64,000 nt of DNA from Acidimicrobiales bacterium (GTDB lineage: Bacteria > Patescibacteriota > Minisyncoccia > Phycocordibacterales > UBA918), in contig JBLIMJ010000002.1 of assembly GCA_047638595.1 (NCBI GenBank), positions 640 through 64,639 of the forward strand, written 5' to 3'. Below, piece by piece: positions 5,663 through 15,795 of this stretch. The notes beneath the pieces were generated by a model that was given only the letters and a program-made list of their open reading frames with translations, had not been told where the DNA came from and made no database searches. Numbering within the stretch: the first letter of the stretch is position 1; each line of letters begins with the position of its first letter. The position numbers and the translations under genes were made by a program.

Positions 5663-6333
5663 ATATTTATATTTTCTTAGGATAGTTTCATGAAGATGTC
5701 ATGACTTTCCTCTAATAATCCGGCTTGCTCACTTTCGCAAGTTCGCCTTCCACGTATACGTACTGCATGGTCACCCATAGCACAAAACACGCCTTCTGTT
5801 GCAAACTTTGAGAATCTTTCGATTATCCCGTTAGTTTGACTACAACAGAGCGGTCCTTCTTCACCTTCCTATTAAAGAATATGTGAGAGATGCGTATATC
5901 GCTTCGTGCACTAATATAGCAAAATACCCCATGAAGTCAATGGTAAAATCACTATTCTTACCCTTTTCAGGCGGTTGCTTTCTAAAGAAAACAACCGCCT
6001 GAAACACCTAGAAAGAGCTAAACACCCAAAATCAGGGCCATTTTGGGTGTTTATCTAAAATTCATATACAAAAACACGACAGCGAAGCTGTCGTGTTTTT
6101 GTATAGAGTTACCTCTTCGAACCGTTACGTTCTGTATCTGAGTTTTCAGTAATGTTTGACTTTCAACGGTACCGTCAAGTTTCTAAGTAAAATTTGTACT
6201 ACGTACAAATTCTACTAAGAACTTCCTGGCCGGACTCGACCGTTCTTTCTCTATGAAGAGAAAGAACATGTCTCCGACTTTTACCACTGAACGAAAGCAA
6301 AACTGTTTGCTTTCTAAAAACCAGAATCAGAAA
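5663..6333. other. 670-bp hairpin-rich noncoding spacer inside the spc cluster (between rplE and rpsZ); no ORF of 60 aa or more
   Basis: hairpins at 5964-6003, 6019-6051, 6070-6101, 6212-6236 and 6275-6375 (12-bp arms TTTACCACTGAA/TTCAGTGGTAAA enclosing the rplE 3-prime end). Confidence 0.6.
6070..6101. terminator. intrinsic terminator-like hairpin ACACGACAGC-GAAG-GCTGTCGTGT flanked by A-run/T-run, in the middle of the spc cluster
   Basis: perfect 10-bp stem; same ACACGACA stem motif as terminator at 1091. Confidence 0.55.
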
Positions 6334-6891
6334 CTATTTAGTTTCAGTTTCTGCTTTTTTCAGTGGTAAACCGATATGTCGTAAAAGCGCTTCAGCCTCC
6401 GCAGGAGTCTTTGCGGTTGTTACGATAGTTATCGCTAGACCAAACACATCTTTAATATCCTCGTTTACTGTTTCTGGGAAGATCGTATGGTCTTTCAGAC
6501 CAAGTGTGATGTTTCCCATTTCATCGATAGCTGTTGCATTTAACCCACGGAAGTCGCGAGTTTGTGGCAAAGCAACGTCGATAAGCTTATCGAGGAATGT
6601 TCGCATACGTTCGCCACGAAGTGTGACTTGGTATCCAACAATATCCCCTTCTCGTAGCTTGAAAGTCGCAATTGACATTCGAGCTGCTCGAGGTGACGCT
6701 TTCTGACCTGTAATCTGAGCAAGTCGATCTTGAATAAGAGCAATCTTATTTTTATCATCAATCTTACCAGTGCCCGTAGAAACGATAACCTTCTCAATAC
6801 GTGGTGCTTGCATTACGTTTGTGTATGCGAATGTATCCTTAAGAGAATCATACACGGCCGCAAGCTTTGTTTGCATATTTAATGTTGCCAT
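6334..6891 (-). CDS. rplE: 50S ribosomal protein L5
   Basis: 185 aa; KVIVSTGTG..; operon context. Confidence 0.9.
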   Translation of the reverse strand: MATLNMQTKLAAVYDSLKDTFAYTNVMQAPRIEKVIVSTGTGKIDDKNKIALIQDRLAQITGQKASPRAARMSIATFKLREGDIVGYQVTLRGERMRTFLDKLIDVALPQTRDFRGLNATAIDEMGNITLGLKDHTIFPETVNEDIKDVFGLAITIVTTAKTPAEAEALLRHIGLPLKKAETETK

Positions 6892-9615: not shown

Positions 9616-9942
9616 TTATGAGGCTTTAGCAGCTTTAGCAGCTGCGATTTCAGCTTCTTTCTTCTTAACATCAAGTTCTTTCTGCATCTTTCCACCATGT
9701 CGGTAGAATTTTTTCGTGGGTGAGAATTCACCTAATCGATGACCTACCATATCTTCAGTTGCAAGAACTTCAATATGATCCTTTCCATTGTGTACTCCAA
9801 ATGTGAAGCCTACCATTTCAGGTGCAATCATCGAATCACGCGCCCATGTCTTGATTACTGCTGTTTCAACGCCTTTTTTACCAGCAATTTTTTTCAACAG
9901 TTTCTCGTCAACATAGGGACCTTTATATAGAGATCGTGACAT
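9616..9942 (-). CDS. rpsS: 30S ribosomal protein S19 (with Lys/Ala-rich C-terminal tail)
   Basis: [22 protein letters not shown].. Confidence 0.9.
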
Positions 9943-10448
9943 TGTATATATCTTAAAGAAGATGTTGCGAATATAGAAAACCGAACGGTTCGCTATATCC
10001 GCATACTTAATAATTATTCTGCCTCCCCTATCACATCGATAGGTTAGTGTAACGGTTTATTGTTAGGGATTGCCCTACCAGAGGCGAATCCAAAACGAGG
10101 TTAGAACGGGGCTATATTACGTGAAATATGTTGTAAAGTCAACACAATAATGGCCCCGGGAGGTCTCCCTGATCCATTGTACCAATTTGGTGTAAAATGC
10201 CGTTATCTCATAAGAAGTTAACAGATACAACTTGTATGAATGACTGATTCGCGGTACAAAGGGGTTAGGAGGTAAGAGATATGCCACAATTGTATGAAGA
10301 GTAGGCGATTTTGCCACCTGAACTACTTAAATCAGCCAAAAATGCGGAGCAGGAATTGAAAAACTTGCTAACTTGCTCTTAAAGGGCGTAACTGGCTTTG
10401 ATTCTGCGATTATAGCGCAATATCAAAGCACACAGGGAGAAACAAACG
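9943..10448. other. 500-bp structured noncoding region where rplB would normally abut rpsS; several nested hairpins
   Basis: hairpins at 9964-10010 (TGCGAATATAG..CTATATCCGCA with inner CGAACGGTTCG), 10030-10047, 10092-10141, 10142-10153. Confidence 0.5.
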
Positions 10449-10652
10449 ATGCCACACATGCTCACTGAACATGACCCGAAGCAAAGCGATGGGCAAGATG
10501 ACGGAAAAGCGATGGTCCTTAAGGTCCCACCGCTTGATTACGTCACAGAAGAAACAGATCCCCTGGGTAAGGCTAAAGGGCCTGCAGCAGAAGCAGTCGA
10601 CGTCGCAACAGAAGCTTTTGGGCCTGGGATTCTGGCTGGACTTAACCCCTAA
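10449..10652 (+). CDS. hypothetical small acidic protein (67 aa) encoded opposite to the ribosomal operon
   Basis: GGGAGA RBS 8 nt upstream; followed by hairpin plus T-run at 10672-10701. Confidence 0.4.
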   Translation: MPHMLTEHDPKQSDGQDDGKAMVLKVPPLDYVTEETDPLGKAKGPAAEAVDVATEAFGPGILAGLNP

Positions 10653-10671
10653 ACACCGCACACACTCAAAC

Positions 10672-10701
10672 TAAAGGCTGGGAAACCCGGCCTTTTCTTT
10701 T
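10672..10701 (+). terminator. hairpin GGCTGGG-AAA-CCCGGCC followed by TTTTCTTTTT
   Basis: read from sequence. Confidence 0.5.
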
Positions 10702-10722
10702 TATGTTATAGTCATTCTACAT

Positions 10723-11043
10723 ATGCCTAAACCCCGAGGAAAAGAACATACGACCCTTACGGAGACTGCTCAGGAGGTGGTTCGCATACTTAAAGGTATC
10801 TCCGGGGTAAAGATGATTGCTCCTGGCGAGATAAAAACTAACAGTCGTAAAGGTACAGGTGCACGCTTTGTGACCGCGGTATACACTACCGCGGGCATGG
10901 AACTCATTATCTCAGGACAAAGCGTACAGAAAGTAGCTATTCATACAGACGGAAATCCTAAAAATATATTTAAGCTACTTAAAGAACACAAGAAGATGAG
11001 AAATTTTGAGTTTAAACAGCGGGAGAGGAAGCCTGGAATTTAA
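10723..11043 (+). CDS. hypothetical protein (106 aa), basic C-terminus
   Basis: ORF; followed by perfect 13-bp-arm palindrome at 11042-11074. Confidence 0.4.
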   Translation: MPKPRGKEHTTLTETAQEVVRILKGISGVKMIAPGEIKTNSRKGTGARFVTAVYTTAGMELIISGQSVQKVAIHTDGNPKNIFKLLKEHKKMRNFEFKQRERKPGI

Positions 11044-11074
11044 ACAATACTACGTTTAACCGTAGTATTGTTTA
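11042..11074. terminator. perfect palindrome AAACAATACTACG-TTTAAAC-CGTAGTATTGTTT
   Basis: read from sequence. Confidence 0.45.
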
Positions 11075-11177
11075 AACTTCGATACAAAAGAATCTAATAT
11101 CTAACGAGCTTAGCTCCTTGCTTTTTTGTTTCTTTTGGGTATATTTCTTTAGGAAATCTTACACAAGGAAAAGAGCA

Positions 11178-11474
11178 ATGGCAAAAATTGGATTTAACGC
11201 TGTAAGTGAAGAACATAGCCACACTATCGATCAAGGCAACAAAATGAGGAAACTTTTTGCTGCCGTTGTACTCGCAGCATTTGATGATGCGATGGCTGAC
11301 GACAGGAAATACGGCAACGGTCCAGGAGTCATCGCACGCTGGGCTCGTTCACACGACGGTCGCGAAGTTCTGTTATGTGCAGGTATTGAACCAAGCGAAC
11401 GCGCTATAAGAGGAATGATGCAGTTTGTTGCTAATGGCGTGCCGACATCAAAAGCTCTGACAAGAAAAGAATAG
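11178..11474 (+). CDS. hypothetical protein (98 aa from MAKIGFNAV; ORF extends to 11118)
   Basis: AGGAAAAGAG RBS before ATG at 11178; convergent with rplB. Confidence 0.45.
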   Translation: MAKIGFNAVSEEHSHTIDQGNKMRKLFAAVVLAAFDDAMADDRKYGNGPGVIARWARSHDGREVLLCAGIEPSERAIRGMMQFVANGVPTSKALTRKE

Positions 11475-11579
11475 GTTGGGGGTATGTGAGTTACATACCC
11501 CTTTTTGTATTGTCTTTTTGACATTTACGGTGTTCGTCGCCAATCACTAAGTATATTTTTTTCGTCTTCGACTCCAAAC

Positions 11580-11734
11580 CTACTAAGTGTTCTCGACCCC
11601 ACCTCAACTGTCGCTAAAGCAACATGTTTCCGGCTTGGCAAGAGATCCGCAACTGCCTCAAGGCAGTTGTTAAAACAAAGAAAAACACTCCCTTTAAAGG
11701 GAGTGTTTTTCTTTGGTTTATCTCTTCCCACCCA
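11580..11734. repeat. tandem copy 1 of a 190-bp unit: degraded rplB 3-prime end (..IIIVSN-LGGKR*) plus three-stem structured bidirectional terminator
   Basis: P1 aagagat/atctctt, P2 caactgcc-tcaa-ggcagttg, P3 aaaacaaagaaaaac[ACTCCC-TTTAAA-GGGAGT]gtttttctttg. Confidence 0.75.
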
Positions 11735-11769
11735 AGTTACTAACTATAATTATTCGCTACCGCTCCAAT

Positions 11770-11925
11770 TCTAGTAAGTACTCGCGACCCCGACTCGTCT
11801 GTTGCTAAAGCAACATGACTCCGTCTTGGGAAGCGGTCACAACTGCCTCAAGGCAGTTGTTAAAACAAAGAAAAACCTCAGGCTTAAGCCTGGGGTTTTT
11901 CTTTGTTTTACCGCTTCCCACCCAT
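11770..11925. repeat. tandem copy 2 of the same unit, overlapping the true rplB stop
   Basis: P1 gaagcggt/accgcttc, identical P2, P3 apical stem CCTCAGGC-TTAA-GCCTGGGG: compensatory changes relative to copy 1. Confidence 0.75.
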
Positions 11926-12771
11926 CAGTGGTCCTGGCTTTCGTCTTGAAACAATCAATTTGTTTGAGTGTTTCTTCGGTGATCGAGTCTTTTGACCCTT
12001 TCCTGTTGGTCGACCTTGCTTTGTGCGAGATCGTTTGTGTCCTCGAGGAGATTTACCTTCACCACCTCCATGTGGGTGGTCAACTGCATTCTTCGCAGTA
12101 CCACGAGTCTTCGGTCGAAGTCCCATGTGTCGTGCGCGTCCTGCTTTACCGATTGATACCAGACGATGTTCTTCGTTTGATACTTCACCGACTGTTGCCC
12201 AACATGTTGAGAGTACCTTACGGATCTCAGTTGATGGCATTTTGAGTGTTGTGTATCCTGCATCGTGAGCGATCACTTCTGCGTGGATACCTGCAGCTCG
12301 AGCAATACGTGCTCCACCTTCAGGCTTCATCTCCACTGCATACACGAATGTACCAAGTGGGATGTTTGCGAGAGGAAGGCGGTTGGCTTTGGTTGGCTTT
12401 GCAGTTTCAGAAACTACAAATGTATCACCTTCCTTCATTCCTTGCTGTGAAAGAATGTACCGCCGTGCGCCGTCTGCATACAGAACTAAAGCAATGAAAC
12501 CAGTTCGGTACGGATCGTACTCGATAGTCTCTACTTTCGCAGGGACATCTTTCTTATCAAACTTAAAATCGATTTGTCGGTATTTTCGTTTATTACCAGC
12601 TCCTCGGTACCAGTTTGTGATACGTCCAGCGCTGTTACGTCCTCCTGTAGACTTCTTACCTTTTGTAAGTGCCTTTAGTGGTTTGCTTGCAGTTGAAGTA
12701 AGATACTTCTTGTACTCAATCACCGAGCCGTCACGACGGCCCGCTGATGTAGGTTTATATTTTTTTACCAT
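11908..12771 (-). CDS. rplB: 50S ribosomal protein L2 (start at MVKKYKPTSAGRR; ORF extends to 12834)
   Basis: KKYKPTSAGRR, VDHPHGGGEG motifs. Confidence 0.93.
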   Translation of the reverse strand: MVKKYKPTSAGRRDGSVIEYKKYLTSTASKPLKALTKGKKSTGGRNSAGRITNWYRGAGNKRKYRQIDFKFDKKDVPAKVETIEYDPYRTGFIALVLYADGARRYILSQQGMKEGDTFVVSETAKPTKANRLPLANIPLGTFVYAVEMKPEGGARIARAAGIHAEVIAHDAGYTTLKMPSTEIRKVLSTCWATVGEVSNEEHRLVSIGKAGRARHMGLRPKTRGTAKNAVDHPHGGGEGKSPRGHKRSRTKQGRPTGKGQKTRSPKKHSNKLIVSRRKPGPLMGGKR

Positions 12772-12840
12772 AATATCTGAGTGGTACCCAATAGTTAATT
12801 TCTGTGCTGTATGCTGCCACTGTATCAGTGACATTCATAC

Positions 12841-14577: not shown

Positions 14578-14627
14578 TTATTTAATTGAACTAGTCTAAT
14601 AATAGTAGCTTTGTTAGACCAACAAAT

Positions 14628-14697
14628 GAGAAATCGCACCGTTTTGGCGCGAGCAGAATGCTCACACAAAAACGGTGCGATTTCTGCCCATTGGTTC
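14628..14697. promoter_or_regulatory. 70-nt hairpin with perfect 17-bp outer stem (AGAAATCGCACCGTTTT/AAAACGGTGCGATTTCT) and inner hairpin GAGCA-GAA-TGCTC, upstream of rplC
   Basis: read from sequence; architecture like the other hairpin-in-hairpin modules. Confidence 0.5.
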
Positions 14698-15140
14698 TCA
14701 TGTCTGCAAGCAAACAATCATCGAACATAGGTCTTTTAAAGCTGGGAGTAGTATACGTATTTATACAATAATTGCAAGACATTCATGGTTACTTTTATTG
14801 GTACAAATTAACAAGCGCAGCGTTTAAAAAGGCGTGATGATTGCACATTTCGTAGTAATAACAATAGTGACGGTACCGCGACCACTCCAAAAGGTATAAG
14901 TTTTGCTACCTGCATCATTAATGAAGACAGAACGCCTCTTAAAGGTTACGAGGGTCATATCTGCCTGATGGATCATCCAGAACATTCAGAAGATTCCGAA
15001 CATTCAGGGACGTGGTGGTATCTATAAGAGGAGGAAAGGTAAGCATACCCCATCTCGGCGATATCTCTTCAAGATGTTGCGTTTGGCTAAAAGTGTAGTA
15101 CTGTTGCACTAAATTAGTACATCAACCATGGGAGATACCG

Positions 15141-15572
15141 ATGAGCAATTCAGATGGAAAAATAATAGTTGCAACAGCTGATGTTGGTGCTGTTCTTGCT
15201 CTGTTGAAACAGCTTGAGCTAGACACAAGTCTTATATTCACAACATCAGGTGAACCACTTGATGAAGGGGCGTTCGAGCGCCTCGGAGCAGAAGTCCGAG
15301 AAATATTAGCGACGCGTAACCTTCCTGTAGCAGATGTTTTGAGGCTTATGGAAAAGGTTGTGAGTGAAGAACCTCCAGTCCTTGCATTGCTGGATGAACT
15401 GTTCAGACCGCAGAAAGGACTCGAACTATTTGCTCCAATGGAAGCACATATGTTGTCAGACATTCCCATAATTCATCTGATTGAAGAGAAGCCGCACCGG
15501 GCATTCGACAATGGCGCAGAAATTCGTTCTGCAAAAGGAGCACGGAAAAAACAAACTCGTTTCAACACCTAG
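15141..15572 (+). CDS. hypothetical protein (143 aa) inserted between rpsJ and rplC on the opposite strand
   Basis: GGAGA RBS 6 nt before ATG; own terminator at 15627-15660; antisense ORF 15122-15469 is low complexity. Confidence 0.55.
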   Translation: MSNSDGKIIVATADVGAVLALLKQLELDTSLIFTTSGEPLDEGAFERLGAEVREILATRNLPVADVLRLMEKVVSEEPPVLALLDELFRPQKGLELFAPMEAHMLSDIPIIHLIEEKPHRAFDNGAEIRSAKGARKKQTRFNT

Positions 15573-15626
15573 CGCGGAAAGTACCCGAAGGCCACCTTGG
15601 TCTTCGGGAATTTTTATACATATAAC

Positions 15627-15660
15627 AAAAGACCGACAGCTTAGCTGTCGGTCTTTTGTT
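15627..15660 (+). terminator. AAAAGACCGACAGC-TTAG-GCTGTCGGTCTTTTGTT intrinsic terminator
   Basis: perfect 14-bp stem with T-run. Confidence 0.65.
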
Positions 15661-15795
15661 ATCCTCACGGACTATCAAATTTTCTTAAAATTGATGAGCT
15701 GCAAGGCGAGATGAAGTTTTATCGGGAGCGGTACATAGGTACCGTGACTGATAAAACTGAAATCTCAACGCCGCAGATCGCTCATTTAAGGAAAT

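Follow-up and report, generated by a model that had tools for sequence, protein, structure and literature searches.

The rplB-rpsS gap of a Patescibacterium: a probable clade-wide spacer with a resident gene and a structured trailer RNA

Background

Few gene arrangements of bacteria are as conserved as the S10-spc cluster, on which "syntenic ribosomal protein" phylogenies and binning checks are based. In contig JBLIMJ010000002.1, of which we analyzed a stretch of 64,000 nucleotides (the window), two genes of this cluster, rplB and rpsS, are separated by 1,965 bp, and three small open reading frames (ORF1 to ORF3) lie between them on the opposite strand. An earlier reading, made from the letters without database searches (the sequence-only reading), took this stretch for an accessory or mobile unit inserted into an otherwise intact S10 operon. 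Is the gap such an insertion, or does it belong to the lineage? We find that it is probably (a probability of roughly 0.7) a spacer between separately transcribed blocks of a ribosomal cluster that is fragmented across the clade, and not a recent insertion. The element at its rplB end, a trailer of about 200 nt, is a previously undescribed structured RNA with no match in Rfam.

Organization of the locus

On the minus strand the window carries, in this order, rpsJ, rplC, rplD, rplW, rplB, rpsS, rplV, rpsC, rplP, rpmC, rpsQ, rplN, rplX, and rplE. The frame of rplB covers positions 11908-12834 and has the Pfam domains Ribosomal_L2_N and L2_C. Its homologues align from an ATG at 12771, and in tblastn the 287-aa form is covered from residue 1 to residue 287 at up to 96% identity; the true start is probably 12771. 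The features that matter for the following are:

11908-12771, minus strand: rplB (uL2), from Pfam and tblastn
11718-11924, minus strand: trailer RNA, unit 1 (covariance model R1, 186.5 bits, E 2e-50)
11527-11734, minus strand: trailer RNA, unit 2, a tandem copy (direct repeats D1-D3; member of alignment A1)
11178-11474, plus strand: ORF3, a 98-aa DUF6280 protein (Pfam PF19796), with a terminator-like hairpin at 11478-11502
10723-11043, plus strand: ORF2, a 106-aa basic DUF2103-like protein (Pfam, clade conservation)
10449-10652, plus strand: ORF1, a 67-aa acidic small protein, near-orphan (homologue P0242), with a terminator-like hairpin at 10673-10695
10232-10260, plus strand: candidate promoter TTGTAT-17-TACAAA facing ORF1 and ORF2 (sequence block conserved between window and locus L207, alignment A3)
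10114-10142, minus strand: putative rpsS promoter TTGACT-17-TAATAT (consensus scan, conservation)
9943-10113, minus strand: structured 5' leader of rpsS, about 170 nt (fold and conservation)
9616-9942, minus strand: rpsS (uS19), Pfam Ribosomal_S19, E 3e-32
6161-6374, minus strand: third copy of the trailer RNA, at the 3' end of rplE (model R1, 133 bits, E 2e-35)

The Pfam-identified gene coordinates bear out the distance given by the sequence-only reading, and the three plus-strand ORFs of 67, 106, and 98 aa are there, opposite to the ribosomal genes and themselves non-ribosomal. The signs of the GC and AT skews are reversed over about 9950-11450, matching plus-strand coding, and GC content along the stretch varies between 0.37 and 0.51. 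Other parts of that reading need revision. It gave each ORF a terminator and a ribosome-binding site (RBS): the terminator scan found hairpins after ORF1 and ORF3, ORF2 being followed by a 19-bp AT-rich palindrome (11039-11076), and ORF1 has a conserved RBS whereas ORF2 has no obvious Shine-Dalgarno sequence. The ORFs are separated by hairpins and spacers of 70-134 nt and do not form one tight operon. None was thought to have a recognisable family; in fact ORF3 belongs to DUF6280 and ORF2 scores above the DUF2103 cut-off, both being families of unknown function. What was described as a noncoding, hairpin-rich stretch of 500 bp is not uniform, since its first 200 nt or so (9943-10142) are the conserved putative promoter and the leader of rpsS. 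Finally, the duplication of the rplB end is real (a tandem repeat of about 190 bp, at about 11572-11734 and 11763-11924, which includes the rplB stop codon), but its units are more than terminators: they make up a structured RNA of about 200 nt.

The same ORFs, identical and in the same order, are found on a Logan contig (L001) and on a JGI contig (L002), and the proteins are recorded in the NCBI metagenome-assembled genome (MAG). Hence, the arrangement is no assembly artefact.

Nearly all related loci share the split

We scanned species-representative genomes with rplB and obtained 80 loci. These relatives are nearly all Patescibacteria MAGs (with labels such as Paceibacterota, Kaiserbacteria, Nomurabacteria, and "Saccharibacteria"), and by this affinity the host is a Paceibacteria-type Patescibacterium. 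Both rplB and rpsS were present in 39 loci, at distances of 35 to 5,653 bp (median 1,570). The canonical 35 bp occurs only in L082, the most distant locus, and the gap is 263-5,653 bp in the other 38. About two dozen further loci have no rpsS within the stored downstream flank, which reaches nearly 6 kb in about a dozen of them. Since the gap is common to nearly all relatives, the split between these two genes characterizes the clade and is not an event in this genome. An empty canonical site is seen only in the distant L082, the closest relatives (L003, L004, and L006) lying on contigs too short to tell.

The cluster is interrupted elsewhere as well. In the window, rpsJ and rplC are 1.2 kb apart (14578-15795), with a plus-strand ORF of 143 aa between them (15141-15572) for which Pfam, PHROGs, PADLOC, and NCBIfam gave no family; among relatives this distance varies from 151 to 4,076 bp. 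The gap of about 0.7 kb between rplE and rpsN (5664-6333) is a second cluster break of the same kind as that between rplB and rpsS. Besides the trailer copy it contains more hairpins and a promoter-like TTGACT-17-TATATT near 5938-5910. The rplE boundary also takes up large foreign genes: in L210 (positions 1-1333), rplE is directly followed, at the place expected for rpsN, by a gene whose product has at least 659 aa and an SLFN-g3 helicase domain.

The ORFs in the rplB-rpsS spacers of 37 relatives have few families in common, and these guest genes point in either direction. Pfam analysis of 61 of them identified peptidoglycan-binding plus DUF4398 proteins (5-6 members), radical SAM (two), and YdjM (two), with single cases of PhoH/PIN, Lgt, PIG-L, PIN, HEPN, and others; it revealed no integrase, transposase, or phage family among the 61. 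One recurrent guest is a family of 402-508 aa, with a peptidoglycan-binding domain and long acidic DUF4398-like repeats, found in the spacers of L017, L018, L020, L049, L053, and L068; in five of these six loci it directly adjoins an ORF2 homologue.

The start of the rpsS block

The block containing the putative rpsS promoter is conserved in L005, L007, L009, L014, L021, and L075, and also in L207. In 17 of the 39 related loci, rpsS is preceded, at a distance of 73-252 nt (mostly 148-206), by the same motif in the form TTGACW...CGTAMTAT. The leader that follows has a minimum free energy of -49.5 kcal/mol (z = -3.4 relative to shuffles) and is conserved in L007, L008, L009, and L207. It matched no Rfam family, and may be an undescribed ribosomal-protein leader. 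As a conserved promoter-like site and a leader precede rpsS, this gene would head its own transcription unit. The plus-strand promoter candidate at 10232-10260, which faces the other way, was not picked up by the consensus scan.

A structured RNA trails rplB

The trailer has a common architecture: the last ~10 nt of rplB and its stop codon (X), hairpins H1 and H2, the complement of X (X'), a helix P3 with a variable inner hairpin, a long hairpin H4, and a tail resembling X. In unit 1, the last rplB codons and the stop codon pair with their complement at about 11825-11835 to form helix P1, which encloses H1 (a terminator-like 25-bp hairpin, 11861-11910) and H2 (11839-11859). P3, H4, and the rplB-end-like tail come after P1, and unit 2 uses this tail of unit 1 for its own P1. 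The direct repeats D1-D3 of the two units are 78-100% identical at a spacing of 190-191 nt, and the sequence of unit 2 scores 116 bits on L001. A block of 37 nt, made of H2 and the A-rich arm of H1, is 100% identical between the units (11650-11686 and 11840-11876) in the midst of flanks that are 78-90% identical, which suggests recent gene conversion between them.

About 190 nt past the rplB stop codon are 67-79% identical in many relatives, and X' tracks X even where the C-terminus of rplB differs (L043, L067, and L074). We aligned 17 sequences with MAFFT and folded the alignment (A1) with RNAalifold; 58 of the resulting 68 pairs show compensatory changes, and the covariance model R1 was built from this alignment. 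Among the 94 best copies (alignment A5), 96.1% of the cells pair, compared with 61.9% in shuffled and 35-42% in slid controls, both sides have changed in 64 of the 68 pairs, and covariation scores 0.663 against 0.163. These pairing counts are inflated by the fitting of A5 to the model; the independent MAFFT/RNAalifold result agrees with them. Compensatory pairs are thus well above the shuffled and slid controls, as expected of a conserved structured RNA. One G-U pair is kept in 76 of the 94 copies, which indicates that the strand that folds is the gene-sense strand.

Two hairpins deserve a closer description. H1 after rplB has the features of an intrinsic (Rho-independent) terminator, with minus-strand CAGGCTTAAGCCTG and AGGTTTTTCT at 11892-11879, within the 25-bp palindrome. 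H4 contains a quasi-palindromic ACUUAGU/ACUUAGU helix with a central U-U mismatch.

We found no match to Rfam 15 in the window at the gathering thresholds, and only sub-threshold hairpin look-alikes at E <= 10. In 15 related loci, Rfam matched only tRNA, tmRNA, and one group I intron elsewhere, and left the trailer uncovered. Group I introns are common in Patescibacteria (PMC13011429). We rejected this identity for the trailer, none of whose units matches RF00028: the upstream tRNAs and tmRNA are complete (ARAGORN, Rfam), and rplB has its own stop codon. One such intron does occur (RF00028, 58.6 bits), at L096:4331-4534, in a locus with three trailer copies and without overlapping them. A self-cleaving ribozyme, or another Rfam family, was set aside for want of Rfam support and also because the position of the upstream gene end is not constant: it falls at the P1/H1 junction for rplB, in the loop of H1 for rplE, and in two registers for tRNAs.

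The trailer follows tRNAs and several housekeeping genes

The trailer is not restricted to rplB. In the copy at the end of rplE in the window, the 5' strand of P1 lies inside the rplE coding sequence and the stop codon is in the loop of H1; this position is occupied by a trailer in L007, L009, L015, and L034 as well. A metagenome scan with the core motif gave at least 120 stretches, and almost all of the 80 loci that we fetched (L087-L166; for example L106:1436-1702, L144:6205-6481, and L154:1091-1683) match the model. Three loci of 8-10 kb carry 3-4 copies each. Upstream of the 94 best copies we found a tRNA in 42 cases (16 isotypes), rplB in 24, rplE in 4, the tmRNA in 1, and another copy in tandem in 6, leaving 17 unassigned; manual inspection of the upstream ORFs placed one of the latter after rplL and one after a GNAT gene. 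One trailer copy follows fusA, and a lower-scoring one, outside the 94, follows ftsZ.

The overlap with the 3' end of tRNAs clusters around two lengths, ~9 nt and ~25 nt. In the register of 25 nt, the T-arm of the tRNA and a downstream complement make up P1, and the 3' strand of the acceptor is within H1. A literature search, whose incomplete coverage makes it weak evidence of novelty, returned no tRNA-trailer RNA in Patescibacteria.

The three genes of the spacer

ORF2 is a clade-wide resident of the rplB-rpsS spacer, usually in head-to-head orientation to rpsS. Its homologues, 47-85% identical, are found antisense downstream of rplB in 38 loci, and in the three further contexts that were checked (L208-L210) the homologue is head-to-head with rpsS. 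The family has 772 homologues in the protein database, none informatively named and most with a precomputed PF09876 tag, and 25 invariant columns (for example Arg5, Gly6, His9, Lys30, Arg48, Glu60, Gln66, Lys70, and His74). The match of ORF2 to Pfam DUF2103 (PF09876) has 27.1 bits for a gathering cut-off of 22.4 (E 3.9e-6). The protein has no cysteines and a net charge, counted from the sequence, of about +12. A search of the PDB with the ORF2 profile gave chance matches only (E about 1). ORF2 may serve to bind or process nucleic acids, and would be expressed divergently from the region of the rpsS promoter. We rejected a link between ORF2 and the trailer by local co-occurrence: L208-L210 have ORF2 and no local trailer copy.

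ORF3 matches DUF6280 (PF19796) over its full length with 120.2 bits (gathering cut-off 27, E 4.4e-35), and shares the invariant core of the Rhodobacterales members. We found 184 homologues at 62-75% identity, of which those with a name come from Rhodobacterales. In that order DUF6280 occurs as a lone chromosomal gene, which lies beside efp in one contig set and beside mrp genes in another, and not beside ribosomal genes, whereas the copy in the window lies in the ribosomal cluster of a Patescibacterium. A second Patescibacterial copy (L022) has the same distinctive short C-terminus as ORF3, G[VI]PTSxALTRK, so this would be a resident subfamily and not a one-off transfer. A literature search, likewise of incomplete coverage, returned nothing on DUF6280.

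ORF1 has one real homologue, P0242 (58% identity, 67 aa), located at the same place upstream of rpsS in L207. The two DNA sequences differ at third codon positions, and the RBS and terminator are conserved; hence, ORF1 is a real small gene. We also considered an RNA gene in this region of 51% GC, and rejected it: the z-score of the fold is only -1.1 and the substitutions relative to L207 are coding-like. Since ORF1 and ORF3 are patchy among relatives, they are accessory.

Proposed explanation

These observations can be assembled as follows. The genes rplC to rplB and those from rpsS onward would be separate transcription units. The rplB block would end at the intrinsic-terminator-like hairpin that starts at the rplB stop codon and is embedded in two tandem trailer copies; the rpsS block would start from its own sigma-70-type promoter (10142-10114), followed by the structured leader of about 170 nt. 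The spacer would be a permissive site where ordinary genes accumulate and differ among genomes, ORF2 being the usual resident and ORF3 and ORF1 sporadic additions. The trailer would be co-transcribed with the gene upstream and serve as a module for 3'-end processing, stabilisation, or termination insulation, and a dimeric protein may recognise the quasi-palindromic helix in H4. We think the structural and evolutionary side of this account likely to be right; the specific functions that it gives to the trailer RNA and to the proteins are doubtful.

A bolder version would make the trailer a new sense-strand element of the Paceibacteria clade that clamps the 3' ends of highly expressed RNAs, a general platform for processing, quality control, or termination, whose H4 is read by a dimeric protein and whose spread fragmented the cluster. 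Its clients would be tRNAs of many isotypes, the tmRNA, and the mRNAs for uL2, uL5, EF-G, bL12, and FtsZ, and the DUF2103-like protein of ORF2, beside rpsS, would be one candidate partner. We regard this as speculative and, taken as a whole, rather unlikely.

Several points weigh against the spacer reading or the functions attached to it, in addition to the inflated pairing counts of A5 mentioned above. The promoters, terminators, and unit boundaries are deduced from sequence and conservation, and the strict rpsS promoter motif is not found in all related loci. H1 has the appearance of an efficient terminator, which would limit transcription of the remainder of the trailer after rplB. In tRNA contexts, the pairing of P1 and H1 competes with the fold of the tRNA, which is hard to reconcile with a simple stabilising role. 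ORF2 matches DUF2103 marginally and over part of the profile (positions 7-84 of 98), and no confident structural neighbour was found for its predicted fold, making its role a guess. Finally, the closest relatives of ORF3 are alphaproteobacterial where named, so that some horizontal acquisition into the spacer did take place.

Alternative explanations

The sequence-only reading proposed a recently acquired cassette, for example a toxin-antitoxin or anti-phage module. Small genes on the opposite strand with a hairpin each, the patchy distribution of ORF1 and ORF3, the Rhodobacterales relatives of DUF6280, and the variable GC content are what one would expect of it, and for ORF1 and ORF3 the accessory character stands. 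The notion of a unit inserted into an intact operon does not fit a break that is common to nearly all related loci with very different contents, nor an rpsS with its own conserved, putative promoter and an rplB with its own terminator-like hairpin. It is already largely refuted for ORF2: that reading was to be given up if the same genes sat there throughout the lineage with housekeeping homologues, and the clade-wide residence of ORF2 goes part of the way. Traces of mobility or defence are likewise missing. For ORF1-3 and the 143-aa ORF, PADLOC gave no family and NCBIfam nothing, and PHROGs only two matches with E 0.08-0.28. Pfam, NCBIfam, and PADLOC gave no toxin or antitoxin domain in ORF1-3, whose spacing and intervening hairpins are not those of such a module. 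Phage collections had no match to ORF2, and neither phage nor plasmid collections had any to ORF3. The stretch 9943-11907 has no ORF of a size suitable for a recombinase, transposase, or integrase, in line with the spacers of relatives, and ORF1-3 are not flanked by repeats, the sole long direct repeats being in tandem on one side. A recent cassette is thus very improbable. An antisense arrangement, in which transcription of ORF1-3 towards rplB would modulate the ribosomal genes by transcriptional interference or antisense RNA, could draw on the convergence of these genes on rplB and on the divergence of the ORF1/ORF2 side from the rpsS promoter region. However, the plus-strand genes end in hairpins and overlap no ribosomal-protein coding sequence, H1 is a symmetric, bidirectional-looking terminator between ORF3 and rplB, and the guest genes of relatives point either way. 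The convergent arrangement needs no special pleading, because hairpins separate the convergent transcription units, and we give the antisense idea very little credence.

The repeats of the rplB end call for another comparison, with att-like scars of integration. The trailer would be, or derive from, a small integrative or mobile element, which would have opened the spacers and brought cargo by integrating repeatedly into the 3' ends of rplB, rplE, and tRNA or tmRNA genes. Each unit indeed ends in a degenerate direct copy of the 3' end of the upstream gene (in the window, TGGGTGGGAAGCGGTAA and TGGGTGGGAAGAGATAA), followed by another terminator-like hairpin; units are stacked in tandem; the element is multi-copy, as in the three loci of 8-10 kb; and the range of targets (tRNA, tmRNA, and housekeeping 3' ends) resembles the choice of attB by integrases. 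Yet Pfam gave no recombinase family among the 61 spacer ORFs, the overlap with tRNA ends has two registers instead of a single crossover point, and integration does not produce the inverted complement of the target. The conserved G-U pair points to a function at the RNA level. The trailer is kept at the orthologous position after rplB across relatives of 68-96% rplB identity, where P1 covaries with the local rplB C-terminus, which argues for long vertical maintenance under selection. We consider integration scars unlikely. An assembly or binning artefact, that is a chimeric contig of Patescibacteria ribosomal genes and foreign DNA, would account for the conflict between the NCBI label of the MAG, 'Acidimicrobiales bacterium', and the affinity of rplB, as well as for a DUF6280 gene that is otherwise alphaproteobacterial where named. 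The same junctions are present in three independent data sources, though, and the stretch is connected on both sides with Paceibacteria relatives through ORF2 and the trailer units; mis-binning of the whole contig, which is probable, accounts better for the label, and the chance of an artefact is negligible. The close relative L006, labelled 'Patiriisocius sp.', is probably also mis-binned.

Comparison with known systems

Relative to the canonical S10-spc operon (E. coli type), the window keeps the gene order from rpsJ to rplE. The clade differs in that its cluster is cut at rpsJ|rplC, rplB|rpsS, and rplE|rpsN. The spacers at these breaks measure from 0.3 to more than 5 kb and hold their own putative terminators and promoters as well as unrelated genes, and the breaks are off the classical S10/spc/alpha boundaries. 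Our literature search, of incomplete coverage and thus weak evidence of novelty, returned no account of split S10 operons in the candidate phyla radiation (CPR). A clade with what are probably separately promoted blocks and with kilobases of fast-changing unrelated genes between them implies that the S10-spc arrangement is not obligatory, and calls for caution: such gaps should not be read as insertions or mis-assemblies. The rplB-rpsS gap itself is fairly ordinary for this lineage, and it is ORF2, and especially the trailer RNA family, that raise its interest.

A 'DUF2103-like' effector domain has been discussed for Menshen and type III CRISPR contexts (PMC12065111). In comparison with those effectors, ORF2 is a stand-alone, single-domain protein without cysteines, and in this CPR clade its place beside rpsS is fixed. 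Among the ORFs near it we identified no CRISPR or defence genes, and PADLOC gave no match. We regard this highly basic protein, conserved across the clade, as a concrete candidate for a translation or RNA-processing factor specific to the lineage, in organisms whose ribosomes are reduced.

Of the by-products of this analysis, the trailer RNA is the most useful, being abundant, strongly covarying, and without a match in Rfam. As the adjacent tRNA, tmRNA, or mRNA contributes its 3' end to P1, the trailer makes 3'-end formation and RNA processing in Patescibacteria directly testable. Integrases use attachment sites in tRNA and tmRNA genes, and the trailer is like these sites in involving the last ~9-25 nt of tRNA or tmRNA genes and housekeeping 3' ends, with a direct copy on the far side and tandem stacking; it is unlike them in having no integrase or cargo between the repeats and in containing an inverted, covarying complement of the gene end. 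Intergenic repeat families located at the 3' ends of genes, among them REP/BIME, ERIC, and further MITE-like palindromes, offer another comparison. Like REP/BIME and ERIC, the trailer is short, multi-copy, and hairpin-rich, follows stop codons, is sometimes in tandem, and overlaps terminators. Unlike them, it is strand-specific and, at ~200 nt, much longer, has a covarying multi-helix architecture, and is kept at orthologous sites with one helix tailored to each upstream gene. As a lead, we mention RNA motifs downstream of ribosomal-protein genes, such as the L17 downstream element and Bacteroidales-1, which would share with the trailer a conserved structured RNA immediately 3' of a ribosomal-protein coding sequence; the trailer, which matches no Rfam family, is multi-copy, also follows tRNA genes and a tmRNA gene, and uses the end of the upstream gene itself for its first helix. 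The nearest known kinds are thus the RNA motifs downstream of ribosomal genes and the REP-like repeats, and the trailer is a member of neither.

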